Shown: piece after piece, positions 1 to 59,479 of the stretch
Layout: the number at the start of each line of letters is the position of its first letter
Position numbering within the stretch: position 1 is the stretch's first letter
Assembly (NCBI GenBank): GCA_964474825.1
Contig: CAYYWQ010000001.1
Span: 964,048-1,028,047 of the forward strand
Length of the DNA: 64,000 bases
Direction of reading: 5' to 3'
DNA from: an uncultured Candidatus Saccharibacteria bacterium
GTDB lineage: Bacteria > Patescibacteriota > Doudnabacteria > UBA920
Program-made: the position numbers and the translations under genes
The notes under the pieces: model-generated
Told to the model about the DNA's origin: nothing
The model's input: only the letters and a program-made list of their open reading frames with translations
Databases searched by the model: none

Positions 1-1327
1 CCGGGGGCTCGCTTTGCAGCAAGGCGTTTACCAATCCAAAAAATAAATCAGTGTCGCTTAAAGCCTGGGTAACCAAATCTTTAAATTCTAAATTACCGGA
101 ACCGGTTTCCGGATTATAAAACGAGCGGAGCAGGTAACCTAAATAACCCCAGCTGACTTTGGTGCTAATGTTGTTACTGACCGCGGTTTCAAATTCATTC
201 AAGCCGACAATTACCGCCAAGCGGTTTTGGTACAACCCCAAAGAAGAAAGCAAACCAAAAGTTGCCTGGTCTGTACAAACAACGGCAGGCTTGGAAAATT
301 CCCGGAGGTCGTCGCCGCTTATAAGTTCACGGAACTGCCCCCCGGAGAAAGATAAGTTTAAATCTAAAATTACAGCCTGCTGCCAATTAGTGTATTTCCA
401 AACTAAAATTTTTAAAAGAAACCTAACCTGCTCAGTGCTTAAATCCGATTTTTTTAAAATGGCCTCGAACTTCTTTTCGTTAAAAAGCATTTCCCCGGAA
501 AAAACCGGTTGCCAGCCAAACTCTTTCCATAGCTCCATGACCTGCTGGATCTTAGGCACAACCAATAAAACTTTCTGACTACTCCCTTGCAGCCGCTTTG
601 CCGCCGCCTCTACTGGATTATCACTAGGCGGCAAGTCGTAAACCGTTTCGTTGTTAAAAACAAACTTAGTTTTTTCATTTTTAGTTTTTTTTGTCTTATT
701 TTCCTTTTTTTCAGTCTTTGGGGCACTAGCTTCCGCCAAAAGTAAACTTTGCCAGGAAAAATTACAAGGCTCAATTAATTTTTGAATTTCCTCTTTTAAA
801 TCTTCCGGAAACCCGGCGTATTTTTGTAGCAATTTCTCCAAAACTTCCAAAGCAGCCTTACTGTCTGCTAAAGCCCTATGGGCATTGGGGTGTTTAATTC
901 CAAACGTATGCATTAAATTTTCCAAATTATAGCTGTGGTGTGTGGGCAGAAGCCATTGCACAAGTTCAAGAGTATCAACCACCGGCCCCGAGAACTTTAT
1001 GCCCTGGCTTTCCAAAAATTTAATGTCAAAAATAACATTGTGCCCAACAATGCAGCAAGCGCCAATTTTTTCCTGTAAAAATTCCTTAAACTCGCCAAAT
1101 TGTGGCGCTTTATCCAGCTCCTCCTGGCTTATGCCGGTCAAGCCAAAAATTTGCGCTGACACGGGCTTACTGGGCTTAAAAACCTGAGTCCACTCCTCTG
1201 TTATTTCTAACTTACCTCTCACAGCCTCAAACATCACAAAACCTACTTCCAGAATCTCTTCCTTCAAAGGGTCAAAGCCGGTAGTTTCTATATCCAGGCT
1301 GCAATAAATTTTCTGTTTTGAATTCAT
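1..1327 (-). CDS. DnaQ-family 3'-5' exonuclease domain protein (C-terminal part runs off window; >=442 aa)
   Basis: Hand-translated the minus strand from the ATG at 1327 to position 1 without a stop. N-terminus carries exonuclease motifs: DIETTGFD (Exo I), HNVIFDIKFL (Exo II), HRALADSKA (Exo III). The downstream ~270 aa have no Walker A motif, so this is not clearly a DinG-type helicase. Plus-strand ORFs 159..578 and 942..1187 are antisense artefacts. Confidence 0.6.
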   Translation of the reverse strand, partial: MNSKQKIYCSLDIETTGFDPLKEEILEVGFVMFEAVRGKLEITEEWTQVFKPSKPVSAQIFGLTGISQEELDKAPQFGEFKEFLQEKIGACCIVGHNVIFDIKFLESQGIKFSGPVVDTLELVQWLLPTHHSYNLENLMHTFGIKHPNAHRALADSKAALEVLEKLLQKYAGFPEDLKEEIQKLIEPCNFSWQSLLLAEASAPKTEKKENKTKKTKNEKTKFVFNNETVYDLPPSDNPVEAAAKRLQGSSQKVLLVVPKIQQVMELWKEFGWQPVFSGEMLFNEKKFEAILKKSDLSTEQVRFLLKILVWKYTNWQQAVILDLNLSFSGGQFRELISGDDLREFSKPAVVCTDQATFGLLSSLGLYQNRLAVIVGLNEFETAVSNNISTKVSWGYLGYLLRSFYNPETGSGNLEFKDLVTQALSDTDLFFGLVNALLQSEPP

Positions 1328-18325: not shown

Positions 18326-18401
18326 TGGTGCCCTCGGAGGGAATCGAACCCCCATCTCATCCTTAGGACGGATTTGCTCTGATCCATTGAGCTACGAAGG
18401 C
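18326..18401 (-). tRNA. tRNA-Arg(CCT)
   Basis: Acceptor GCCTTCG/CGAGGGC, anticodon loop GTCCTAA, T-loop TTCGATT, and CCA. Confidence 0.7.
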
Positions 18402-18545
18402 AACTGCCAAAAAATTATAACATAAACAGCTATATTATGCTAAAATTAATTTAGACATAAAAAAGCTGGCACTTCTTGGGCCAGTTTAAGCATTATATCA
18501 TAGTTTAAGTCTGTTGTCAATATATTAAACAATAAACTTAAAGCC

Positions 18546-19874
18546 TTGTCAATATTGTTGCATATGGAACACTCTCAGTCTAAAAAACTTAGCTTTCTCA
18601 ATATTTCGGTCATTTTTTTATTTTTGGCCGTTTTAAGCCTTTTTTTCCCGATTCGCCATGTATTTCTGAGCCATTTCAGTTTTATAACTGGCGTTTACTC
18701 AGACTTTACCAGCTTTTCCCTATACTTAGCTGACATATTCTTGGGCCTCTCGGGTGGCTTTTGCCTAGCTGGGGCGGGGAGAGTATTACTCCTTTCCTTG
18801 AAACCCCTAAGGTGGCTGACCCTATGGATTTTTGTTGTTTTTTTGACTAATTTTGCCTTAAACAAGGGAGAAAGTGCCTATTATTTACTTAAGTTCCTGG
18901 AAATGATTGTTGCATATGGAACAATTGTAACCCTGTTCAAATTAAAGCCTATTAAAACAGCCTTTTCAACCTTATTTATAACCCTTTCTACCCTCCAAAG
19001 CCTGCTAGCTTTGCTCCAATTCTACCTTCAAAGGCCAGTTGGGCTGTTTAGGCTAGGGGAGCAGCAAATCTACCCCAATATGCAGGGGATTGCGAAACTA
19101 GTGGTAGATGGAACCACATATATTAGAGGTTACGGCACTTTCCCGCATCCCAACCTGCTTTCTGCCTTTTTAGTGGCCGGAGTCCTTTTAACCCTCTATT
19201 TATTCCAGACAGCCCAAAAAACCAGGGCCAAAGCAGCCTTAGCAATAACTTTAGCCATAAATATACTAGGCTTAACCGTGACCTTTTCACGTGCAGCATT
19301 TTTGGCTTTGGGAATTGGTCTCGTAATATATTTTGCCTATTTGCTCATCTCCAAGGTTAACATCAAAAAGATTTACATTAGTCTTGCGATAATTTTTGCA
19401 AGTTTATTAACCTCATCTATTATCTTCAGGCCATACTTACTAACAAGAGCCACAATTTCTGGTTCCGCCAGCTCCCAAAGAATAGCTTACAACAGAATCG
19501 GAGTAGAGATGATTAAAGAACATCCGCTCTTTGGCGTGGGACTAGGGGAGAGCGTACCATTAATGAACGAATTTTCAACTGTAAGATTATTACCCTGGGA
19601 CATTCAACCAATCCATAATTATTTTTTACTCACCGCCGCAGAAACAGGAATTATTGGCGCACTAATATTGATTTGGATATTCTTGTCCCACCTACTCACT
19701 ACTTACCACAAGCTACGAACTAGTTCCAATCCTTTTCTCTATTCTCTATTCGCTATTCTCTCATGCTTCCTAGTTCTCATGCTCTTCGACCACTACTTCT
19801 ACACCCTCCAGCAAACCCAAATACTCCTTTGGATAACTTTAGGGCTTATTGCGGCAGAAACAAAAAAAGTTTGA
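18546..19874 (+). CDS. O-antigen ligase (Wzy_C) family polytopic membrane protein
   Basis: About 10-12 TM helices with an RGYGTFPHPNLLSAFLVAG loop typical of the O-antigen ligase domain. Confidence 0.65.
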   Translation: MSILLHMEHSQSKKLSFLNISVIFLFLAVLSLFFPIRHVFLSHFSFITGVYSDFTSFSLYLADIFLGLSGGFCLAGAGRVLLLSLKPLRWLTLWIFVVFLTNFALNKGESAYYLLKFLEMIVAYGTIVTLFKLKPIKTAFSTLFITLSTLQSLLALLQFYLQRPVGLFRLGEQQIYPNMQGIAKLVVDGTTYIRGYGTFPHPNLLSAFLVAGVLLTLYLFQTAQKTRAKAALAITLAINILGLTVTFSRAAFLALGIGLVIYFAYLLISKVNIKKIYISLAIIFASLLTSSIIFRPYLLTRATISGSASSQRIAYNRIGVEMIKEHPLFGVGLGESVPLMNEFSTVRLLPWDIQPIHNYFLLTAAETGIIGALILIWIFLSHLLTTYHKLRTSSNPFLYSLFAILSCFLVLMLFDHYFYTLQQTQILLWITLGLIAAETKKV

Positions 19875-27858: not shown

Positions 27859-29001
27859 TTACTCAAAAAAATTCTGAATAAGTCCGTTTTTAACAATTTG
27901 CGGCGTGTAACCGCCCTCCCTGTCGCCTGCAGAGTTAACGGTAATACTGCCCGAAGCACCCGGCCAATTTTTTATTGTTCTAGACCAAGCGGCTAATTTT
28001 TCCCCGTTATAGCCAACCTGCTGTATGCCAAATTTTAATAAATAAATGGAGTCGTATTCCGTATGCCCATAACTTTGGTAAGCTAATTCCACTCCATATT
28101 TTTGTTTGTAGTCTTCGAGCAGGTGTTTAGATTTTGGATTGGTTAAATCTAAGACAAACTGCGAGCCTAAGGATCCTTCCAAAAAATCTTTATGGTCTTG
28201 CAAAAACTTTTGATCACCAGCTTCTGTTTCGGTAATAAATAATTGCGGCTTCCAGGCAAGTTCCTCAACCTGCTTAATTATTCTTTCCCCGGCCGGGGGA
28301 GCCTGCGGGTCTATAAATAGAACATCGGGGTTCTGGTTCTTAAGCTTTATTAGCTGTGACCTAAAATCAGTTGAATCAACCGGAAACTCTTCTTTTATAA
28401 CCTCCCCTCCCAAAGCTTCAAAACGTTTTTTAAACGCGCCGTAAATCCCTAAAGGGTAATCTTTTTGCTCCACTATAAAAGCCACTTTGCGGAATCCTTT
28501 CCTGTAAGCGATTTCGGCATCAACCTGTCCCTGACTGTCGTCGCTTGCTACGTTGCGGAAAAAATACGGGCTTATGCCGGTCAACTCCGGACTGGTTGCC
28601 CCGGGCGAAAAAAATAAAACTTTATTTTGCTGCGCAATAGTCACGACTGGAATAGTCACACTGCTGCACAAACTGCCAAGCAGTATTTGCACTTTGTCTA
28701 CATTAATTAATTTTTGCGCGGCACTCGCCCCGTCCTTTCCGCTGCATTTATCGTCTTCAATTATTAATTCCAGTTTTTTGCCGTTTACCCCTCCTTGGCT
28801 GTTTATTTCTTCCACCGCCAGCTGGTAAACATTTTTTGCCGGCTCGCCGTAAATTGCCGCGTCACCGCTAAGAGGCAACAGCACACCAATTTTATAAATT
28901 GTGTCTTGGCTAGTCTGGTATGGTTTAGTTTTAGCTGATATTAGCCAAACCACCAAAACCAAGACAATAAAAATTGCCGTCACCTTCACTTGTTTATTCA
29001 T
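27859..29001 (-). CDS. ABC transporter substrate-binding protein, branched-chain amino acid (LivJ/LivK, Peripla_BP_6) family
   Basis: Signal/TM segment followed by IGVLLPLSGDAAIYGEPAKNVYQLAVEEINSQGGVNGKKLELIIEDDKC. No adjacent permease or ATPase gene. Confidence 0.85.
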   Translation of the reverse strand: MNKQVKVTAIFIVLVLVVWLISAKTKPYQTSQDTIYKIGVLLPLSGDAAIYGEPAKNVYQLAVEEINSQGGVNGKKLELIIEDDKCSGKDGASAAQKLINVDKVQILLGSLCSSVTIPVVTIAQQNKVLFFSPGATSPELTGISPYFFRNVASDDSQGQVDAEIAYRKGFRKVAFIVEQKDYPLGIYGAFKKRFEALGGEVIKEEFPVDSTDFRSQLIKLKNQNPDVLFIDPQAPPAGERIIKQVEELAWKPQLFITETEAGDQKFLQDHKDFLEGSLGSQFVLDLTNPKSKHLLEDYKQKYGVELAYQSYGHTEYDSIYLLKFGIQQVGYNGEKLAAWSRTIKNWPGASGSITVNSAGDREGGYTPQIVKNGLIQNFFE

Positions 29002-29118
29002 AGCATGTTCTTAATAATTAGTGTCATTGAATTTTACATTCAATAACATAACATTATAATAGCTTGATTTATATAGTCAATAATGTATACTAAAAGTGTC
29101 AGCCATAACAACACTTTT

Positions 29119-29856
29119 ATGATACCTATAAATTCGCTAACAAATTTAGGCCTTTCTGCTGTGGAATCTAAATTATATTTAGCGGCTCTTGAGCTAGGAC
29201 AAAGCCTGCCAAAACATTTAGCCGAAAAGGCCGCCATAAAACGACCGACACTTTATGAATTTTTACCTAAGTTATTAGAACAAGGACTGTTAAGCGAAAC
29301 AGTAATTGGCAAACGCAGATATTTAGTGGCGGAAGACCCTGAGGTGTTTTTAGATAAAAAACATTCTGACCTTGCCCAAATAGAGCTACTGGTACCTCAA
29401 CTTAGACTATTGCTGGCTACAGCATCGGTTAAGCCAAAAATAATTTTTTATGAAGGCGTCGAGGGGCTAAAAAAAATTTACCAAGACAATTTGCGGGAAA
29501 ATGAGCCCACCCTGGAATTAGTAGGCATAGACAAAATCCAGCCCGAAATAGAAACCTACATTAACCGTTATTATATTCCGAGCCGCGTAAAAAAACGCAT
29601 TGCTTTAAAAATGCTAATTAGCGGTTCAGAAAAAAATGATTCGTGGAATTACAAAACTGATCCTTATATGCTCCGCGAAACTAAGACAATTTCCAATAAA
29701 TTTTTTCCCATACCAATGGATTGCAATATTTACGGCGACACAGTGGCCTTAGCCGTCTACCGCAGCGACAGCGAACCGATTGGGCTAATAATAAGATCTA
29801 AAGAGATAGCCACAACCATGCGATCACTGTTTAATTTCATTTGGGAAAAGGCCTAA
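29119..29856 (+). CDS. TrmB-family transcriptional regulator (paralog 0)
   Basis: N-terminal winged HTH (ESKLYLAALELGQSLPKHLAEKAAIKRPTLYEFLPKLLEQGLL) plus a TrmB C-terminal domain. Homologous to the ORFs at 52844, 55298 and 58661. Sigma70-like promoter (TTGATT-16-TATACT) upstream. Confidence 0.7.
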   Translation: MIPINSLTNLGLSAVESKLYLAALELGQSLPKHLAEKAAIKRPTLYEFLPKLLEQGLLSETVIGKRRYLVAEDPEVFLDKKHSDLAQIELLVPQLRLLLATASVKPKIIFYEGVEGLKKIYQDNLRENEPTLELVGIDKIQPEIETYINRYYIPSRVKKRIALKMLISGSEKNDSWNYKTDPYMLRETKTISNKFFPIPMDCNIYGDTVALAVYRSDSEPIGLIIRSKEIATTMRSLFNFIWEKA

Positions 29857-36005: not shown

Positions 36006-36647
36006 TTAGATTTTGCCCTGTTTAGATTCCAAATATTTTTTGCCGTGGCCGACTTTAGTGTTTATGGGCAGGCCGGCTTTACACATTGGGCAGTCTTTTT
36101 CTTCAAAAGTTTCCGCCGGGATTTCACACAAAGCTGAAAAGGGGACGCCAAGAGTTTCGCTATTTATATCTTTCGGAACCCGGTTAACCAGAACTCCCAT
36201 GGCCTGGATTTGGGTTTCAAACTTCTTTGCAACATCTATCATTTTATTCACCGAAAGCCCTGTGGCAACCGTGTCTTCTATAATTAAAACTTTTTTGCCT
36301 TTAACCAGCTCGTCATAGCCGCGCTTAAATACTAACGGACCTTCGTCTGTTTTGTCGGCATAAGCTGCCAAAACTTCCTTGCCCTGGATTTCACTTAAGT
36401 GCCTGGCCACTTCATGGCCTAAAATGGCTCCAGCCACCACCGGGGAAACAACTATATCTACTTCTAGATCTTTATGCTTTTCAGCCAATAAATAACAAAT
36501 ACGCGAGGTCGCGGCCGTATGGGGCAGTAAATAGTCTTTGTTTATATATATAGACATATGCCGGCCCGAAGTGCCCACAATATGACTGTCTGTAATAACC
36601 GCGCCGGTCTTTTTTAAAATGTCCAAAACTTCCTCTTCTACGTTCAT
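36006..36647 (-). CDS. pyrE: Orotate phosphoribosyltransferase-like type I PRTase with C-terminal CxxC zinc-ribbon-like tail
   Basis: PRPP-binding motif KVLIIEDTVATGLS. Lies in a pyrD-pyrF-pyrE-prs gene string. C-terminus CPMCKAG. Confidence 0.7.
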   Translation of the reverse strand: MNVEEEVLDILKKTGAVITDSHIVGTSGRHMSIYINKDYLLPHTAATSRICYLLAEKHKDLEVDIVVSPVVAGAILGHEVARHLSEIQGKEVLAAYADKTDEGPLVFKRGYDELVKGKKVLIIEDTVATGLSVNKMIDVAKKFETQIQAMGVLVNRVPKDINSETLGVPFSALCEIPAETFEEKDCPMCKAGLPINTKVGHGKKYLESKQGKI

Positions 36648-52103: not shown

Positions 52104-52733
52104 CTACTTGCGGCCCCTCCTTAGATCAATACGCGCGCTGACGTTAAAGTATACCCGGCTTTCGCTTAGCCCGGTCAGGCTAAACCTATAAGCATACGCC
52201 CCGCCGTAGTCCACGCCCCGCCAACTGCCAAGACCAAGACTGAGCCTAGGCCCAAAGTTGTACTGCTTAGGGAGTGTTGAACTGGCTGGCCGCCAGACAG
52301 ACTCCTCTTCGCCGCCCAGCGAAAGCTTTTTCCACACGCGATACTCCACAATCGCGAAGTGGTAAACGCCCGGCTGGGTTACGAAGGCTGTCGGCTCCAC
52401 ATAGACCGAGAGCCGTTTGGTTAACTGCACGCGGCTGCGGACATCAAGAGCCCAAAACCCGCCCTTTTGGCTCCACTGCTTCTGGGCCATAACTTCAACC
52501 CAATTGTTTTTGTCGCCGCGGCCAACACCAAAAAAAATGTTGGCGTTATTTGGTGTTGCGGTGCGGAAGTTAGGAATTCCCCAAACTACTAAATCATAAC
52601 CCTTCCCAACCTCACCGCGAAAATGGAACGCGTCTCGGTTCTGCCAATCCTGGGCGTGTAGACGTGAACACAAAAACCAGGCCATTGCGATTAAAGCAAT
52701 AACTATCCAAACCAAACTTTTATTGCGTCTCAC
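52104..52733 (-). CDS. Signal-peptide protein with outer-membrane beta-barrel-like alternating pattern, in GC-rich (~57%) island
   Basis: Signal peptide MRRNKSLVWIVIALIAMAWFLCSRLHA. Amphipathic alternating-residue strands and a C-terminal aromatic-rich segment (GGAYAYRFSLTGLSESRVYFNVSARIDL). Composition is atypical for this genome. Confidence 0.45.
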   Translation of the reverse strand: MRRNKSLVWIVIALIAMAWFLCSRLHAQDWQNRDAFHFRGEVGKGYDLVVWGIPNFRTATPNNANIFFGVGRGDKNNWVEVMAQKQWSQKGGFWALDVRSRVQLTKRLSVYVEPTAFVTQPGVYHFAIVEYRVWKKLSLGGEEESVWRPASSTLPKQYNFGPRLSLGLGSWRGVDYGGAYAYRFSLTGLSESRVYFNVSARIDLRRGRK

Positions 52734-52843
52734 TGTTCCTCCTTGCCAGAGCCGCCTCTACTTGCCAGCGGATGGGAGTACAGCTTATAATATTTCTATT
52801 GAGTGGCCAACACCACCACAAGATAATATTAACCACCACAATT

Positions 52844-53590
52844 ATGCACCAAGAAATATTGGAAGAATTAGGACTTTCGCCTAACGAAGCAAAAATTTAC
52901 GAATCGCTTGTTGAAAAGGGAGAGTCTTCTGTTAGCGATGTTGCTACCAGTTCGCAAACCCACCGCAGGAATACTTACGACGCTATGAAGCGCCTTGTAG
53001 ACAAAGGCTTAGTTTTTGAAATTCTATCCAGCACCGGCAACCACTATAACGCGGTGGAGCCGGACAAACTTATGGAACTGGTGGCGGAAAAGGAAACTCG
53101 GCTGCGCCACATTTTACCAGACCTAAAAAAGAAATTTCATAGGCGCCTGGCACCGGAAGAAGCTTACATTTACCGCGGATTGGAAGGACAAAAAAATGTT
53201 TTGCGGGACGTGCTAAGAGTTGGTAAAGACAGCTATTTTATTGGCGCCAAAGGCGGCTGGTATGACCCGCGTTTGGAAACTACCCGCAAAGCTTTTTTTG
53301 CGGAAACCAAAAGAAAAAAAATAAAATTCATTCAGTTGTTTGACCACGAAATAAAACTGGAAAAAGATTTCCCTAAATATTTTGAAGGAAATTTAGAATA
53401 CCGGTTCCTGCCCAAACAATACTCCTCAACTTCTGCCATTCATATTTTTGGCGATTACGTGGTGACCTACACCGGAATGACAATTAAAAAATTGGCGGAC
53501 GACATTGTCTTTTTTGTAATTCGCAGTAGCAACTTAGCCGAAGGCTACCGCAAATGGTTTCGGTACATGTGGGACAAAGCGGAAAAATAA
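52844..53590 (+). CDS. TrmB-family transcriptional regulator (paralog 1)
   Basis: wHTH (ILEELGLSPNEAKIYESLVEKGESSVSDVATSSQTHRRNTYDAMKRLVDKGLV) plus a TrmB C-terminal domain. Start at MHQEIL (ATG at 52844). Confidence 0.7.
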   Translation: MHQEILEELGLSPNEAKIYESLVEKGESSVSDVATSSQTHRRNTYDAMKRLVDKGLVFEILSSTGNHYNAVEPDKLMELVAEKETRLRHILPDLKKKFHRRLAPEEAYIYRGLEGQKNVLRDVLRVGKDSYFIGAKGGWYDPRLETTRKAFFAETKRKKIKFIQLFDHEIKLEKDFPKYFEGNLEYRFLPKQYSSTSAIHIFGDYVVTYTGMTIKKLADDIVFFVIRSSNLAEGYRKWFRYMWDKAEK

Positions 53591-53620
53591 AAATTTTCAT
53601 TTTTACATCTCAAAGAAAAA

Positions 53621-53644
53621 GAGCAGGGCCGCGGGGTCCTGCTC
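53621..53644. terminator. GC-rich hairpin terminator (copy 1 of duplicated pair)
   Basis: GAGCAGGGCC-GCGG-GGTCCTGCTC. Near-identical to 56074..56098. Confidence 0.6.
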
Positions 53645-53682
53645 TTTAGAGTTGTGGGGTAAGGTCCCACGGGCCTGCCTTG

Positions 53683-55071
53683 TTATCGGTCGAAAGGCAC
53701 ACACCGGTTTATGAGTTTTGCAACCCAGGAAATGAGGCCGTGGCCGCCCTGGGGAACCAGAGGAGAAGTGGCGCAGCGGCCGGAAGGCGCGTATCTGACA
53801 ATGACAAACAGGTATGCCAGATTCACCAACCAACGCTGCCAGCGTCGCGGGTGAGTAGTTGAGTTCGCGAGCCCGCAAATGTCCAGGTCGTAGAACAGCG
53901 CGGGGTTTTGGATTAGCCCTTCCGCGACTTCAGGGTTTTCATACCAGCCATCATTTCCCGGAAGAATTCCCCGGTAAACATAGGGACGTAAAACCGTGTT
54001 TGGCCAACGGTCAACAAACCAGAAGAACTGAGCAATGGTCTGCAGCAGTCTGAGAAAAACCTTGTCGGAATGCTGACCCATAACAGTGAGAACCTCGGAA
54101 CGCAATCCGAGTTGGTGGGCGAGGTTGTAGGCAGCCTCTATGTCTTCCATCTTGTTTTGCGTTTTTCCTTCCTCATCCCATTCCTCCCTGCTTGTCCCGT
54201 CGACTCCGAACCCAGCGCACCACAAGCCGCTCCGCTGGACAAGTTCGGCAAAGTTTTCGTGCTGCTCGCTGGCAGCCAGAAATGTGCCCATGCAGGTCAG
54301 ACAGCGTGTCCGTAACTGCACACCGGTCTCTTCCTGTTCCTCGGCCATAGCTTTCATATACTGAAATATAGCCTTGGGTGTCTGAAAGAAGTCCAGGTTG
54401 GAAGCGTAGCACTCCAATTTGCAGATCCCAAAGCTCTGGGCCTTTTTCAAAAGGAACCGCAAGTCATTTCGAAAGGCAGTTAGGTCGCGGAAAGTTTCTT
54501 TTTGCCCCTTGGATGCGGAACACCATTTACATTTGTATATGCAACCCTGCGAGAGCACGAGAGAGAATTCGTGTTCCAAATATTTCCGCAGGCGTTCGTT
54601 ACCCATATGCTCCCAAACCGGTTGGTAAGGGATTTCGTAGGCAGAAGGCAACGCGCCGAATAGTTGCGCGTGGTCATTCTCGCTGGCGACCTGAAGAGCG
54701 GTAGTGCCGAACACAGTACGGAACTGCTCTTTGGAGAAATGAGATGTTACTTGGCCACCCAAGACAACTTTTGCGTGCGGATATCGACGTGAGGTTTGCT
54801 TGGCAAATTTGATCGCCCGCGGGATTCCAGGAGAACCCATGACCGAAGCGCCAATTACATCGGCACCGGAGAACAAGCTAGAGACACGCTCGTCGCCGGG
54901 CTTGTCGATGTTGAAATCGACAATATCCACCTTATGGCCAACGGCCATCAATTGCGCAGCTATAGCCACAACAGAACCGGACATGTAAACCTTTTTCCCA
55001 TAAGGGTACCCCAGATCCACCAGGACAACCTTTTGGGGTTTTACCGAAGACTGCAAAATCGTAAAGCTCAT
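53683..55071 (-). CDS. B12-binding domain / radical SAM domain protein (class B radical SAM), paralog 1
   Basis: N-terminal cobalamin-binding-like domain (VVLVDLGY...KVVLGGQVTSH) and a radical-SAM Cys triad GCIYKCKWC (CxxxCxxC). GC ~55%. SD AAGGAGG lies 7 nt upstream of the ATG. Confidence 0.8.
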   Translation of the reverse strand: MSFTILQSSVKPQKVVLVDLGYPYGKKVYMSGSVVAIAAQLMAVGHKVDIVDFNIDKPGDERVSSLFSGADVIGASVMGSPGIPRAIKFAKQTSRRYPHAKVVLGGQVTSHFSKEQFRTVFGTTALQVASENDHAQLFGALPSAYEIPYQPVWEHMGNERLRKYLEHEFSLVLSQGCIYKCKWCSASKGQKETFRDLTAFRNDLRFLLKKAQSFGICKLECYASNLDFFQTPKAIFQYMKAMAEEQEETGVQLRTRCLTCMGTFLAASEQHENFAELVQRSGLWCAGFGVDGTSREEWDEEGKTQNKMEDIEAAYNLAHQLGLRSEVLTVMGQHSDKVFLRLLQTIAQFFWFVDRWPNTVLRPYVYRGILPGNDGWYENPEVAEGLIQNPALFYDLDICGLANSTTHPRRWQRWLVNLAYLFVIVRYAPSGRCATSPLVPQGGHGLISWVAKLINRCVPFDR

Positions 55072-55148
55072 CTGAAGACCTCCTTAAGGTTTTCATAAGG
55101 CTTCTAGAATTGCCTTATCAAAACCCTTAGATTTTGCAGTCTTGGACT

Positions 55149-55182
55149 AGCTAATTTAGCATATTTTTGCTAGATTGTCAAT
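55149..55182. promoter_or_regulatory. Palindromic operator-like motifs AGCTAATTTAGC and ATTGTCAAT in divergent promoter region
   Basis: Both palindromes recur in the homologous intergenic region at 58521..58559. Confidence 0.45.
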
Positions 55183-55259
55183 CTATATGGTCAATTCGTA
55201 TTCTAAATTTCCTTTAAATAAAGCCTTAATTTGTATATACTAGATTTTGTTCAAAGGTG

Positions 55260-55288
55260 TTGACACAAATGAAAAAATAGGCTATACT
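55260..55288 (+). promoter_or_regulatory. Sigma70 consensus promoter TTGACA-17-TATACT (near-leaderless TrmB paralog 2)
   Basis: The -10 ends only 9 nt before the ATG at 55298. Confidence 0.5.
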
Positions 55289-55297
55289 TATATTGCC

Positions 55298-56068
55298 ATG
55301 ATAAATATTCCAAAAAACCTAAGAGATTCGCTTCTTTCTATGAATTTTTCTGAGAAAGAAGCAGACGTGTATCTTGCACTTTTGGAATTGGGCAAAGGAA
55401 CGGTTTCAGTTATTGCGCGTAAGGCAAATTTAAATAGAACCACTGGTTACCATATTTTGGACTCCCTAAGTGCCAAGGGTTTGGTTAGTGTGTCGGGGAA
55501 AGAACCTCTGCAAGAGTTTGTCGCTGAATCACCAGAAAAAATTACTGAACTGCTGCAAAAAAAATTTATTGAGTACGAAAATTATTTAAAGCAGGCCAAA
55601 GAAACTGTACCCCAATTAAAATCTTTTCATAATATTTCGGACAGGCCCAAGGTTAGATTTTACGAAGGCAAGCAAGGCCTAATAGATGTTTACGAAGACA
55701 CCTTAACCTCTCATGAACCACTGCGCGCTTTTGCTAATTTTGACGACATGCACAAAGCGCTGCCCGATTATTTCCCTTCCTATTATTTGCGTCGCTCAAA
55801 AAAAGGTTTAAATATTCGCGGAGTAGTACCAGTAACACCTCAGGCACTGGAACGACAAAAATTTAACAAGGAAGAAGCCAGGGAAATGACATTTGTGCCG
55901 TATGATAAATATTATTTTTCTCCCGAAATAGACATGTATGACAACAAGCTCATGATTGCTTCGTGGAAAGAAAAACTGGGAATAATAATAGAGAGCAAGG
56001 AAATAGCAGATGCCATGAAAAAAATATTTGAACTGGCATGGCTAGGAGCAAAAGCTTTAAATAAATAA
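55298..56068 (+). CDS. TrmB-family transcriptional regulator (paralog 2)
   Basis: MINIPKNLRDSLLSMNFSEKEADVYLALLELGKGTVSVIARKANLNRTTGYHILDSLSAKGLV. Highly similar to paralog 3 at 58661..59479 (for example VRFYEGKQGL..VYEDTLTSHE, MIASWKEKLGIIIESKEIADAMKKIFELAW). Confidence 0.75.
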   Translation: MINIPKNLRDSLLSMNFSEKEADVYLALLELGKGTVSVIARKANLNRTTGYHILDSLSAKGLVSVSGKEPLQEFVAESPEKITELLQKKFIEYENYLKQAKETVPQLKSFHNISDRPKVRFYEGKQGLIDVYEDTLTSHEPLRAFANFDDMHKALPDYFPSYYLRRSKKGLNIRGVVPVTPQALERQKFNKEEAREMTFVPYDKYYFSPEIDMYDNKLMIASWKEKLGIIIESKEIADAMKKIFELAWLGAKALNK

Positions 56069-56073
56069 AAACA

Positions 56074-56098
56074 GAGCAGGGCCGCGGGGGTCCTGCTC
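56074..56098. terminator. GC-rich hairpin terminator (copy 2 of duplicated pair)
   Basis: GAGCAGGGCC-GCGGG-GGTCCTGCTC. Confidence 0.6.
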
Positions 56099-56122
56099 TT
56101 AAAGTTTGGGGACAAGCCCCAA

Positions 56123-58267
56123 TTACAACAAAGTTTGTGCGAACTTGACCGCTTCGGGCCAAGTTTTAAAGTCAGCGTTAATGCCAAGCTCCGTCCGAAT
56201 AACCGTCCTAATTTGTCCGAGGCGGTCATTTAACAAATGCGGAACGTCGGGCTCGGGAGGGTATTGATCGGCCGCAATTGCGGCCATCTCCCGAAGCTCG
56301 GCCCAGGTAAAGCGTGAGCGGTTGACCCACCACGGAATAGTGGAGGTCACTTTATACGCCCAGTGGGTGCGACACGCCTGCTCGAGAATGTCACGGAGGG
56401 CGTCGACCTTGGTGATGGAAGTAACCCTAGTATTGGAAGTACGCAAGTAATCGAAATCACGATTGACCCGCATAGGCTTCTTGTCTTCCAAGACCCGGAT
56501 GTAGTCTGAGTGAGATCCGTTTATCTCCTCCGGTGACAACCGCATGAGGCGGTAGCGACCAGATTTGATAGTTAGGATAGAGTCGCCGTGTTCCGCAAGG
56601 AAACCAATCCACTTAAAACCAACGTGGAGAGGTTCGCCGGGAATACCCACCATGAGAAAGACATGGGTGTGGATTCCGGCATTCTTGAAATTGGCCAGAA
56701 TGGCCCCGTAGTTCTTGGGCTTGTTCCAACCCTTAAACTCCCGGAGCAGCGTATTTGGGTCGAGCGATTCAAGGCCGAGCTGCACTGAGCGGCAGCCGGC
56801 TGTGTAGAGGTCACGGGCAACGGCCGGATCGGTCAACTTACGATTGGCCGGATTCTCCATTGTCACATAGCACTGCCATGTTGCCTCGTAACCAATACGG
56901 CGAAGTTCGGCGCCGAGTTCCAGTTGGAAATCGTAACGGAAGAGCTCATCGACAATGTCGAACTTGCTCTCACCGGTCGCGGCCATGTCCTCCGCAATTT
57001 TCCGCGGCGACATAAAGCGAGGCGCTCCCAAATGCGTGTCGCTCTGCCCCGAAATGGCGCAGAAACCACAGCGCTTGCGACAATTGGAAGCGGTGTAGAG
57101 CGTAAGAACCGGATCGGGCGACCAAGGCTTTGCCTCGCCGTCGAAATGCGGCGTGGGCAAATCCTTAAACTCGGTTGGCGTAGCAGTTGGGGGATTAACT
57201 GTAACCACACCGCTATTCAGCCAAGCAGTTCCCGATGCCGCGCTAGGGTCAAGTGTTGAAACCAATTCCGTGAGTGGCTGATAGCCCTCCCGATAAACAA
57301 TGGCGTCTACGAAGCCGAAAAATTCGACAAACTCTTGCTCGCTAAACGCCTTAGTCAGTCTGGGCCAAATATTTCCGCCGAGAACCACCAGAGTATTAGG
57401 CAACGCTTCCTTTATTAGCGAAGCGAGGACCAGGCCCGGAATGAGTTGCCGTTCGTCGCTGGTAGAAATCCCATATACGTCCGGCTGAAAGTCGCGTGCG
57501 ACCGGCAGCTCAACGTTCATGAAATATTCGTACCAGAGATTCTTTTCGCGAGACATAAGGGCCTTAAGCGTACCCTCAATGCTGCCGTCTTGCGTCGCGC
57601 CTTGGTAGACGACATTATTGCGTTCATAAAAGAACCTGTCCTCTGTTTTTATGTCGCGCGAGATTTGTTCGAACCTGATGCGAGCGGCATAGTAACCCGC
57701 AAGAGTTGGCTTTGCGTTAGGGCCGCGGATGTTGTTGAGCAACTTCTCAACATCCTCCCCGCCGTGCGCCTTGAGCAAATACTCAAGGCCAATAATATGT
57801 CCGTAGCGCTGGCGTACATTGTGCCCCCGCTGGCGAAGCACTGCCGTAAGCTGCGTGGTCCCGCCCGGATGATGCCAAACGGAATACGCGGGAGCGTTAT
57901 ACAGAATGACTTTCCGCGGCTTCATGAGCGCCACCACGGAGAGCAGAGGTTCGGGCTTGATGGCCGTAATCTTGCGGAACGACATAGTAAGCTGTCTCCT
58001 TGGTGTAAGTGGTGTGCGTACATGAGTGGTGTCCAGGATCTGTCTAAAAACCGACACGGGTTCATAGTAAGTCCTGGATTCCCCGACCGGAACCTCGGCC
58101 GTAGCACGGCAGACGCCGTCCTTGTTGGGTGAGAGGCATACCCACGCGGGCACGTTGCCATTTGAGTTCCATCGGCTGTAATACTTCCAGTCAACGGTTA
58201 CCGCGCTCTTTACCTCAATGTTGAAGAGGTTTAGAACACAAAAGATCGCGAGAATTCTGATTTTCAT
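56123..58267 (-). CDS. B12-binding domain / radical SAM domain protein, paralog 2, with ~94-aa N-terminal signal-peptide-like extension and long C-terminal extension
   Basis: Radical-SAM triad NCRKRCGFC and a B12-binding-like region (TLVVLGGNIW). The N-terminus MSFRKITAIKPEP (ATG at 57985, SD AAGGAG 9-10 nt upstream) is homologous to the paralog 1 start MSFTILQSSVKPQ. The in-frame upstream segment starts MKIRILAIFCVLNLFNIEV (ATG at 58267), which overlaps the stop of the upstream small ORF as ATGA. GC ~53%. Confidence 0.75.
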   Translation of the reverse strand: MKIRILAIFCVLNLFNIEVKSAVTVDWKYYSRWNSNGNVPAWVCLSPNKDGVCRATAEVPVGESRTYYEPVSVFRQILDTTHVRTPLTPRRQLTMSFRKITAIKPEPLLSVVALMKPRKVILYNAPAYSVWHHPGGTTQLTAVLRQRGHNVRQRYGHIIGLEYLLKAHGGEDVEKLLNNIRGPNAKPTLAGYYAARIRFEQISRDIKTEDRFFYERNNVVYQGATQDGSIEGTLKALMSREKNLWYEYFMNVELPVARDFQPDVYGISTSDERQLIPGLVLASLIKEALPNTLVVLGGNIWPRLTKAFSEQEFVEFFGFVDAIVYREGYQPLTELVSTLDPSAASGTAWLNSGVVTVNPPTATPTEFKDLPTPHFDGEAKPWSPDPVLTLYTASNCRKRCGFCAISGQSDTHLGAPRFMSPRKIAEDMAATGESKFDIVDELFRYDFQLELGAELRRIGYEATWQCYVTMENPANRKLTDPAVARDLYTAGCRSVQLGLESLDPNTLLREFKGWNKPKNYGAILANFKNAGIHTHVFLMVGIPGEPLHVGFKWIGFLAEHGDSILTIKSGRYRLMRLSPEEINGSHSDYIRVLEDKKPMRVNRDFDYLRTSNTRVTSITKVDALRDILEQACRTHWAYKVTSTIPWWVNRSRFTWAELREMAAIAADQYPPEPDVPHLLNDRLGQIRTVIRTELGINADFKTWPEAVKFAQTLL

Positions 58268-58476
58268 TTTTTTACCTTTCCTAATCCTGACATGCTCACA
58301 GCAACAACACTTGCCAAGCCAAACGTAATACAAACTACTGCCACAGCAGCTCCCACTTGCTGCACAACGACCTCCGCTGTATGGCCGGTGAGCCACAACA
58401 CTGTTACACCTATTGAGAACAATACCCAACTAACCGACCGCAGATATGAGGCTAGCTTTTGTTCTAACTCCTTCAT
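58264..58476 (-). CDS. Small two-TM membrane protein, translationally coupled to radical SAM paralog 2
   Basis: MKELEQKLASYLRSVSWVLFSIGVTVLWLTGH...VVCITFGLASVVAVSMSGLGKVKK. Strong SD AGGAGG 5 nt upstream of the ATG at 58476. Its stop codon TGA overlaps the downstream ATG. Confidence 0.5.
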   Translation of the reverse strand: MKELEQKLASYLRSVSWVLFSIGVTVLWLTGHTAEVVVQQVGAAVAVVCITFGLASVVAVSMSGLGKVKK

Positions 58477-58520
58477 GTGGTCCTCCTTTAGGACTAAGCA
58501 ATCTAACATAAATTGTTAAT

Positions 58521-58559
58521 ATTGTCAATAGTTATTTACTATACTTAAGCTAATTTAGC
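58521..58559. promoter_or_regulatory. Palindromic operator-like motifs ATTGTCAAT and AGCTAATTTAGC (second copy)
   Basis: Same two palindromes as 55149..55182, in the opposite order relative to the flanking genes. Confidence 0.45.
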
Positions 58560-58607
58560 TTATAATTAAAGCTTAAATAGACATTAAAATATTATTGTGA
58601 ATAAATA

Positions 58608-58636
58608 TTGACACAATCTGTTATACAAGCTATAAT
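58608..58636 (+). promoter_or_regulatory. Sigma70 consensus promoter TTGACA-17-TATAAT for TrmB paralog 3
   Basis: Perfect consensus hexamers with a 17-nt spacer. ATG at 58661. Confidence 0.5.
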
Positions 58637-58660
58637 AAATAGGCCATTAATTACAAACAA

Positions 58661-59479
58661 ATGCCTCAGAATAATTTTGAATTACAAAAAGCCTTGCTTT
58701 CGTTAAATTTTACGGAAAAAGAAGCCAGTGTTTATTTGGCTTTGCTGGAACTGGGTCAGGGTAGCGTGTCGGAAATTGCCCGGAAGGCGAACATTAACAG
58801 AACTTACGGCTACAATATTCTTTCCACGCTGGCGGGGAAAGGCTTGGTAAATATTTCCGGAAAAGAACCTAAACAGGAATACGCGGCTGAGTCTCCGGAT
58901 AAAATTAAAGATTTGCTAAAAGCGGAAATTATTAAAAATCAGGAATTTTTAAAACAGGCCGACGGAGTCATTCCGCAGTTAAAATCTATTCATAGTATTC
59001 GGGGACGCCCACAGGTCCGCTTTTACGAAGGCAAGGAAGGTCTGCAACAAGTTTATGAAGATACATTAACTTCACATGGAACTATATTGGCTTACGCCAG
59101 CGTGGAAGACGTACACCAAACCCTGCCCGGCTATTTTCCAGATTATTATTTTCGCCGCGCGGACAAAGGCATCCCAATACGCGCAATTTTTCCCGATTCC
59201 CCCGAAGCCGAAGAACTTATTAAATCAAACAAAGCTCAAAAAAGAGAAACAGCATTAGTACCGCCGGACAAGTTTTCTTTTTCTCCGGAAATAAATATTT
59301 ACGACAATAAAGTCATGATTGCCTCTTGGCGGGAGAAGTTAGGGGTCGTTATAGAAAGCGGCGAGATTGCGGACGCAATGAAAAAAATATTTGAACTGGC
59401 GTGGGCTCAAGCGAAGAGTTTAGAAAAAAATATTAAAGCAAAAAATACCCCTAGACAACTAGGAAAAAATCTGCTATAA
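58661..59479 (+). CDS. TrmB-family transcriptional regulator (paralog 3)
   Basis: LSLNFTEKEASVYLALLELGQGSVSEIARKANINRTYGYNILSTLAGKGLV plus a TrmB C-terminal domain. Closest to paralog 2. Confidence 0.75.
   Translation: MPQNNFELQKALLSLNFTEKEASVYLALLELGQGSVSEIARKANINRTYGYNILSTLAGKGLVNISGKEPKQEYAAESPDKIKDLLKAEIIKNQEFLKQADGVIPQLKSIHSIRGRPQVRFYEGKEGLQQVYEDTLTSHGTILAYASVEDVHQTLPGYFPDYYFRRADKGIPIRAIFPDSPEAEELIKSNKAQKRETALVPPDKFSFSPEINIYDNKVMIASWREKLGVVIESGEIADAMKKIFELAWAQAKSLEKNIKAKNTPRQLGKNLL

Follow-up and report, generated by a model that had tools for sequence, protein, structure and literature searches.

The present analysis deals with two intergenic regions of the 64-kb stretch of Patescibacteria DNA introduced above (the window, i.e. 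that stretch as a whole), designated regions 1 and 2, in each of which a TrmB-family regulator gene (paralogs 1 and 2, respectively, 62% identical to each other) is divergent from a B12-binding radical SAM gene. Each region is probably a copy of a conserved, mirror-symmetric bidirectional promoter, through which the adjacent regulator would repress both its own gene and the divergent cargo by way of two operators, O_L and O_R. The original prediction had drawn attention to two short words shared by both regions, the 12-mer AGCTAATTTAGC and the 9-mer ATTGTCAAT, considered as perfect palindromes and as the candidate binding sites of the TrmB paralogs; this observation is real but overstated and its interpretation partly right, the object of interest being the conserved cassette. 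Both words are indeed present in both regions as exact matches, at the positions reported, with no other exact copy of either within the window:

55149..55160, AGCTAATTTAGC copy 1, coinciding with the extended -10 box predicted for the radical SAM gene 1 promoter
58548-58559, AGCTAATTTAGC copy 2, within an 8-1-8 palindrome, TAAGCTAA-T-TTAGCTTA, at 58546..58562
55174..55182, ATTGTCAAT copy 1, the reverse complement of which carries the predicted minus-strand -35 box TTGACA (55181..55176)
58521..58529, ATTGTCAAT copy 2, likewise carrying a predicted minus-strand -35 box

The first thing to be recognised about the 9-mer, and overlooked originally together with the extended -10 box under the region-1 12-mer, is that both of its copies are the predicted -35 box of the cargo-side promoter, which faces away from the regulator gene. 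The two regions thus harbour four predicted sigma-70 promoters:

55260..55288, plus strand, promoter of paralog 1, TTGACA-17-TATACT, with the ATG at 55298, 9 nt past the -10 box
58608..58636, plus strand, promoter of paralog 2, TTGACA-17-TATAAT, with the ATG at 58661, 24 nt past the -10 box
55181..55176 (TTGACA) and 55158..55153 (TAAATT), minus strand, promoter of radical SAM gene 1 in region 1, with a 17-nt spacer and the extended -10 TG at 55161..55160
58528..58523 (TTGACA) and 58505..58500 (TAGATT), minus strand, region-2 promoter (58500..58528), with a 17-nt spacer ending in TGT

The consensus promoters announced for the two regulator genes are confirmed, while it is paralog 1 and not paralog 2, as had been proposed, whose start codon comes so close behind the -10 box that its mRNA is nearly leaderless. 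Both minus-strand promoters carry the extended -10 TG and score 10/12 in the promoter scan, combining TTGACA, a spacer within 16-18 nt and TGnTAnnnT, and a like arrangement recurs in about 70 loci. The TGTCAA of the 9-mer is conserved in all related loci.

How far this organization extends was apparent from an anchored profile of about 70 non-redundant upstream regions belonging to many Patescibacteria lineages, where the regulator homologs share 60-65% protein identity. With positions counted from the T of TGTCAA, the profile reads as follows:

-1..5, minus-strand -35 box TTGTCAA
13..20, cGTCAAaa
about 35-50, moderately conserved central block
69..80, ATTTTGTGGAAA
85..93, plus-strand -35 box TTGACACAA
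108 onward, -10 box

Conserved blocks reach 3 bits per position and the intervening DNA is unconserved. Without any prior on spacing, the two -35 boxes stand exactly 85 bp apart in 46/70 exact TGTCAA occurrences, and the strongest long-range dyad centre of the profile is the exact midpoint between them. On the plus strand, the start codon lies 35-38 bp past the start of the -35 box in 51/68 loci, and the regulator mRNAs would therefore be leaderless; on the minus strand, a good -10 box at 16-17 bp is found in nearly all loci. What lies downstream of the minus-strand promoter varies, namely a B12-radical SAM gene in 17 loci, a gene for a Cys-rich protein of about 560-590 aa in 10, a solute-binding protein gene in 7, and many singletons. 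Overall, 301 relatives of the regulators were found in Patescibacteria genomes, the nearest belonging to Candidatus Doudnabacteria and other Patescibacteria.

Regarding shared descent, regions 1 and 2 align in the same orientation as collinear homologs with the 9-mers at a homologous position, as would be expected if the shared words were functionless leftovers of the duplication of the regulator gene; aligning them in reverse orientation gave no better register. Such an origin is most improbable as an explanation, considering that the blocks are conserved beside regulators only 60-65% identical in many Patescibacteria lineages while the DNA between them has wholly diverged, and that the copies of the 12-mer do not occupy homologous positions, so that shared descent does not account for them.

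Each -35 box forms the proximal half of a 20-bp imperfect palindrome of 9-2-9 arrangement, which constitutes the inferred operator, O_L on the cargo side and O_R on the regulator side:

O_L consensus, TTGTCAATA-nn-TATCGTCAA
O_R consensus, TTGTGGAAA-nn-TATTGACAC
55175-55194, O_L of paralog 1, TTGTCAATC-TA-TATGGTCAA, the distal half reading TTGACCATA on the minus strand
55247-55266, O_R of paralog 1, TTGTTCAAA-GG-TGTTGACAC, overlapping the regulator's own -35 box at 55260-55265
58522-58541, O_L of paralog 2, TTGTCAATA-GT-TATTTACTA, the distal half reading TAGTAAATA on the minus strand
58595-58614, O_R of paralog 2, TTGTGAATA-AA-TATTGACAC, overlapping the regulator's own -35 box at 58608-58613

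Among the short-range dyads of the profile, the top non-trivial ones are the centres of O_R and O_L (z=3.9 and z=3.1), and the half-sites match at 4.9-5.0 of 9 positions in register against 1.7-4.1 in shifted registers. The half-site centres are 11 bp apart, i.e. about one helical turn, and the operator centres 73 bp apart, i.e. about 7 helical turns. At the level of close orthologs, the O_L of paralog 1, which includes the radical SAM gene 1 -35 box as its proximal half, corresponds to invariant blocks of the region-1 alignment, and the O_L of paralog 2 is conserved in L004 and L005. Two other arrangements were considered and discarded: a direct-repeat model, with TTGWS units 13 bp apart, matches at only 4-5/9 positions compared with 6/8 (P48/H52 class of regulators) and 7/9 (T48/N52 class) for the inverted 9-2-9 model, and a TTGTG-N12-CACAA dyad around the plus-strand -35 box, perfect in region 2, is lost in the P48/H52 class. 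The 9-mer ATTGTCAAT is thus probably the promoter-proximal half of O_L and as such part of the regulator's binding site; to this extent the proposal of the palindromes as TrmB binding sites holds, one of the two words being embedded in a dyad-symmetric probable operator, whereas for the 12-mer, which is not conserved, it fails.

Within the window, the consensus operator pattern finds 4 matches against 0.94 expected, 3 of which are the sites described here; the additional one, at 36538, has 3 mismatches, lies inside a listed open reading frame (ORF; 36006-36647, minus strand) and was treated as a chance match. Separately, two TTGTCAATA words, identical to the proximal half-site, occur at 18514-18522 and 18547-18555, in the intergenic stretch that separates ORF 18546-19874 from a tRNA gene (18329-18401, minus strand), the former word also forming a minus-strand TTGACA promoter-like site.

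Beyond symmetry, there is covariation between operator bases and the regulator encoded beside them (residue numbers being those of paralog 2). The base at position 6 of both distal half-sites tracks residue 52, with D accompanied by G/G in 29 loci, H by C/C in 10, N by A/A in 4 and T by T/T in 2, while residue 48 tracks the base that follows the plus-strand -35 box (46 loci combine T with C and 18 combine P with A). Both residues are located on the predicted recognition helix, residues 47-59 of the AlphaFold model (pLDDT 90.7). Although 64 bp apart, the two distal half-sites hold the same base at position 6 in 48/66 loci, which is the peak of the half-site mutual-information matrix, and the combination of H52 with C/C is encountered in at least 3 separate lineages of a tree built from residues 80-255, i.e. 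without the DNA-binding domain. The window paralogs themselves obey the residue-52 rule, paralog 1 pairing H52 with C/C and paralog 2 N52 with A/A, which suggests that they distinguish their own operators via the distal half-sites. Site bases and the DNA-reading residues of the cognate regulator hence vary together, with exceptions and a partial confounding by phylogeny.

These same data bear on the idea that the blocks merely represent the architecture of strong divergent promoters, i.e. -35 boxes, UP-like elements and other RNA-polymerase contacts, with no dedicated regulator. Such an idea draws on the perfect consensus of both -35 boxes, the near-consensus -10 boxes and the TTTTG and CAAAA elements at about -50, which is where UP-element subsites are located. 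We hold it unlikely since the distal elements, unlike A/T-rich UP elements, have G and C bases that are invariant or class-specific, co-vary with the recognition-helix residues of the adjacent regulator as well as mutually across 64 bp, form in-register dyads with the -35 boxes, and are missing from the window's other strong promoters; TTTTGT upstream of a -35 box is restricted there to the two TrmB promoters and is missing from six other strong promoters.

Several points weigh against repression through O_L and O_R. The case for the operators is built wholly on sequence; the palindromes are imperfect, with about 5/9 positions matching, and their proximal halves are inseparable from the sigma-70 requirement for a -35 box. 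The residue-52 rule has exceptions (L012, L016 and L052, besides TTGTTG variants in the P48/H52 clade), the covariation is partly confounded by phylogeny, and in the D52 class position 5 is C in the left distal half-site but G in the right one. The regulator may act as an activator, or the sites may be bound by a different protein. The operator model also leaves unaccounted for the conserved central block, which lies between the operators and for which the consensus is aGCTTATtttAAAGGt, with no consistent dyad:

55211..55225, the block in region 1, CCTTTAAATAAAGCC
58557..58573, the block in region 2, AGCTTATAATTAAAGCT

A consistent central palindrome was rejected, as the best inverted repeats of individual loci are spread over centres 32-50, where the short-range dyad score is weak; the block could be a bending or accessory-protein site. 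Finally, an exact and partly palindromic 12-mer shared by both regions is nominally improbable by chance (P=0.036).

The 12-mer deserves separate consideration on this account. Neither word is a perfect palindrome, contrary to what had been claimed, both being odd-centred: the core of the 12-mer is GCTAA-T-TTAGC, flanked by an unpaired A and C, and the 9-mer reads ATTG-T-CAAT. When regions of matching size and composition were simulated, a shared word of at least 9 nt arose in 70% of trials (P=0.70) and one of at least 12 nt in 3.6%, so that the sharing of the 9-mer alone is meaningless, as expected by chance, and that of the 12-mer marginal. The longest perfect inverted repeats, with 7-bp arms in region 1 (P=0.12) and 8-bp arms in region 2 (P=0.07), are ordinary for such AT-rich DNA. 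A mismatch-tolerant scan of the window revealed no enrichment of either word, with 15 matches vs. 11.0 expected for the 12-mer and 29 vs. 20.6 for the 9-mer; near-matches to the 12-mer are at chance level in the window and no further ones occur in its promoters.

Positions and orthologs are more telling. The two 12-mer copies sit at -27..-16 and +25..+36 from the T of TGTCAA, i.e. at non-homologous positions of homologous regions. In paralog-1 orthologs at 78-90% protein identity (L084-L088), the left arm GCTAA turns into GTAAA, AAACA or AGAAA, and in the region-1 orthologs at 88-90% the invariant bases of the 12-mer are exactly TG-n-TAnnnT on the minus strand. Extended -10 (TGn) promoters are a known type of sigma-70 promoter, and the conserved bases under the region-1 copy likewise form TG-n-TAnnnT, 17 bp from TTGACA; this copy thus has an ordinary explanation as a predicted extended -10 box, with nothing unusual about it. 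Regarding paralog 2, ortholog L006, reading GCCTAATTTAGC, keeps CTAATTTAG, L005, reading GCTAAGTTATTTTTAGC, keeps both arms with a longer spacer, and the motif is gone from L004 (86% identity). The right arm of the region-2 copy runs into the family-wide conserved central block (TAGCTTAT...AAGG), of which this copy is a lineage-specific neighbour. The core GCTAANTTAGC was found in none of the 88 other related loci, and its dyad is not conserved in orthologous regions. Judging from this pattern, AGCTAATTTAGC is not a conserved operator, as it had been taken to be, and stands outside the regulator-operator system, the identity of its two copies being most likely a coincidence.

Two further proposals would give the 12-mer a function. 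According to one, it is a real site for some other lineage-specific factor, such as either of the two remoter TrmB paralogs or an unrelated DNA-binding protein, which would co-regulate both radical SAM units and do so solely in this genome; its exactness, its restriction within the window to these two regions, its palindromic core, the low frequency of such sharing in simulations, the extension to a perfect 8-1-8 palindrome in region 2 and its partial retention in L006 and L005 all speak in its favour. This possibility is a slim one in view of the non-homologous positions, the lack of the core from 88 related loci, the orthologs at 88-90% protein identity that retain just the extended -10 bases, the loss in L004, which is the closest paralog-2 ortholog, arm lengths usual in AT-rich DNA, and the want of further near-matches in window promoters. 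According to the other, which is that of the original prediction, both words make up one composite operator bound by a sugar-responsive TrmB dimer. The joint presence of the words in both regions and the palindromic nature of TrmB-family operators (PMC4158304) agree with it, and nevertheless it is very hard to uphold, as the order of the words is opposite relative to the flanking genes (an inversion correctly noticed at the time), the gap between them is 13 bp in one region and 18 bp in the other, the 12-mer is not conserved and the protein is without the sugar-binding subdomain. A practical lesson is that a short TTGNCAA-bearing "palindrome" in a divergent region should be read first as a -35 box of the opposite strand.

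As for the protein, the flanking genes were correctly assigned as TrmB and radical SAM, with matches to PF01978 and to B12/radical-SAM families. The regulators are 256-272 aa long and the PF01978 match reaches 51.6 bits for paralog 1 and 55.5 bits for paralog 2 (cut-off 25.6), the winged helix-turn-helix (wHTH) being the only part with a Pfam match. In the AlphaFold2 model, helices 19-31, 36-43 and 47-59 and a wing at 63-76 are followed by a dimerisation helix (81-110) and an alpha/beta, PLD-like domain (118-262), which is the layout of the TrmB family; in structural searches the C-terminal domain matches PLD-fold proteins. The best full-length fold match is TrmBL2 (5BQT, 5BPD; E=7e-14 to 2e-12 over 259-271 aligned columns), with TM-scores of only about 0.4, a differing relative placement of the domains and a sequence identity of about 17%. 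The sugar-sensing TrmB/TrmBL1 equivalogs (NF040851, NF047390, NF047392) score 18-37 bits for cut-offs of 500-650. As modelled, the regulators are TrmBL2-like, without a sugar-binding subdomain, and the suggestion of sugars as ligands finds no support.

TrmBL2 is tetrameric and devoid of a sugar-binding subdomain, and its wHTH pairs lie some 10 bp from each other in neighbouring major grooves, spanning about two turns of DNA (PMC4877046), a geometry in keeping with a 20-bp operator whose half-site centres are separated by 11 bp. This chromatin protein of Thermococcales resembles the window regulators in its wHTH, dimerisation helix, PLD-like domain and missing sugar-binding subdomain, but differs by its largely non-specific DNA binding, its abundance and its formation of filaments, whereas the Patescibacteria proteins have conserved class-specific sites beside their own genes and several paralogs per genome. 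Such sites beside each regulator gene argue for a sequence-specific binding, unlike the coating by TrmBL2. The archaeal operators of TrmB, TrmBL1 and Tgr (TACT-N3-AGTA, TGM TATCAC-N5-GTGATA and TACT-N7-8-GAGTA) are all palindromes and function as repressor sites when overlapping promoter elements (PMC4158304). Common to these systems and to the one described here are the PF01978 wHTH, palindromic operators and, in the present case by proposal, repression upon overlap with the core promoter, autoregulation being known or proposed for some archaeal members; the differences reside in the bacterial sigma-70 promoter, the location of a half-site inside the -35 box, the 9-2-9 arrangement TTGTnAATA-NN-TATTnACAA and the lack of a sugar-binding subdomain.

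Classical divergent local repressors include TetR at tetA/tetR and, in the MarR family, MepR and MexR with two pseudo-palindromic boxes. As with these, the regulator is divergent from its target, palindromic operators cover both promoters and the regulator and its target would be repressed jointly. The logic of the circuit is thus that of a classical divergent-promoter local repressor and is not itself new. The present system departs from them in its protein family, the superphylum-wide distribution of a cassette with varying cargo, the 73-bp operator spacing, the perfect -35 boxes and the mostly leaderless regulator mRNA. In the literature searched, no paper linking TrmB-family proteins with Patescibacteria, also known as CPR (candidate phyla radiation), Saccharibacteria or Parcubacteria was found, nor anything relevant on bacterial TrmBL2 homologs.

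Returning to repression of the regulator and its cargo through O_L and O_R, the sequence of events would be as follows. A bidirectional promoter of about 120 bp travels together with the gene for a TrmBL2-like wHTH regulator, a dimer of which would bind each operator; the bound dimers would occlude both perfect -35 boxes and so repress the regulator and the cargo, until this repression is lifted by some ligand or signal to which the PLD-like C-terminal domain responds. Occlusion of the -35 box is the likeliest mode of action because promoters at or near consensus can do without an activator and the -35 boxes lie under the operators. With low confidence, the two dimers may cooperate as a tetramer across the 73 bp that separate the operators, which is compatible with the strict conservation of this spacing. 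The distal half-sites would carry the paralog-specific information, position 6 being C for the H52 regulator, paralog 1, and A for the N52 regulator, paralog 2.

A broader generalisation, to which we give slightly less than even credence, is that of a modular cassette found throughout the superphylum, combining a sequence-specific TrmBL2-like regulator, two phased operators and a variable cargo, with a recognition code whereby residue 52 reads position 6 of the half-site (D/G, H/C, N/A, T/T). If true, this code would allow several insulated paralogs to coexist in a 1.2-Mb genome, and the cassette would rank among the main specific transcription-factor systems of the reduced Patescibacteria, its regulator being a sequence-specific bacterial relative of a chromatin protein of archaea. 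The novelty would lie in such an apparently sequence-specific bacterial TrmBL2 relative, in an operator located within both -35 boxes and in the superphylum-wide association with variable cargo. For CPR/Patescibacteria, with their tiny genomes, almost none of them cultured and their gene regulation essentially unstudied, the cassette also offers a way into the uncharacterised cargo genes, of the B12-radical SAM and Cys-rich kinds, apparently under the control of these regulators. The predicted recognition code makes it directly and cheaply testable, the sigma-70 consensus promoters being suited to reporters in E. coli.

Regarding the gene content around the two regions, the following features were delineated:

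55298..56068, plus strand, TrmBL2-like regulator, paralog 1, recognition-helix class T48/H52
58661..59479, plus strand, TrmBL2-like regulator, paralog 2, recognition-helix class T48/N52
53683..55071, minus strand, B12-binding radical SAM gene 1, cargo of region 1
56123..58267, minus strand, B12-binding radical SAM gene 2, with weak similarity to RiPP C-methyltransferase and PhpK-like families
58264..58476, minus strand, ORF for a 70-aa predicted membrane protein, first gene after the region-2 minus promoter
55083..55130, minus strand, hairpin in the 5' untranslated region (5'-UTR) of radical SAM gene 1, minimum free energy -23.9 kcal/mol, z = -3.35

The stop of the 70-aa ORF overlaps the start of radical SAM gene 2, and the predicted region-2 minus promoter would drive both. 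Radical SAM proteins 1 and 2 are not closely paralogous. Altogether, the window holds four TrmB-family genes (29119-29856, 52844-53590 and the two paralogs discussed above), with three consecutive regulator cassettes clustered at 52104-59479. Likewise, two regulator homologs are found within about 1.5-4 kb of each other in several other genomes (loci L005, L011, L016, L024, L053, L076 and L082). The Cys-rich cargo protein (560-590 aa, beginning with MQKTCKNCKK... and rich in CxxC) is encountered at loci L020, L021, L023, L026, L038, L055-L057, L067 and L072, and its sole Pfam match is a weak one to a treble-clef zinc-finger.

The fourth paralog, at 29119-29856, had been credited with a degenerate version of the shared motif in its promoter. 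The word ATAGTCAATAAT is present there, at 29073-29084, but belongs to a different and paralog-specific palindrome, ATAGTCAAT being an arm of a 6-5-6 palindrome, so that this gene was not retained as a member of the same motif family. Its true start is probably 29119 and its helix residues are P48/E52. Two 17-bp palindromes lie 37 bp apart upstream, TTGAAT-TTTAC-ATTCAA (29027-29043) and TTGATT-TATAT-AGTCAA (29064-29080), the latter overlapping the -35 box (TTGATT) and spacer of the fourth-paralog promoter, upstream of TATACT at 29086-29091. The gene divergent from it (27859-29001) encodes a periplasmic solute-binding protein. The third paralog, the true start of which is probably 52844, has a D at the residue-52 equivalent, matching the D52 / TTGTGG rule of the main family; direct repeats of CCACCACAA at 52813-52821 and 52833-52841, 20 bp apart, stand in its leader downstream of a TTGCCA-18-TATAAT promoter and read TTGTGGTGG on the other strand.

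At the RNA level, the Shine-Dalgarno region of radical SAM gene 1 is paired within the long 5'-UTR hairpin and sequestered; this hairpin is conserved in L085 and L088, its place being taken by a CCCCGCCGGG element in L084, L086 and L061 and also in L005 and L011. A scan of the whole window at Rfam gathering thresholds found no riboswitch or other known RNA before the B12-radical SAM genes, its matches being tRNAs and a group I intron elsewhere. The group I intron match (RF00028, 76 bits) spans 38218-38468, 168 nt downstream of a tRNA gene (37977-38050), and after it comes an ORF of 251 aa (38519-39274) that has a strong promoter-like site, TTGACA, at 38541.

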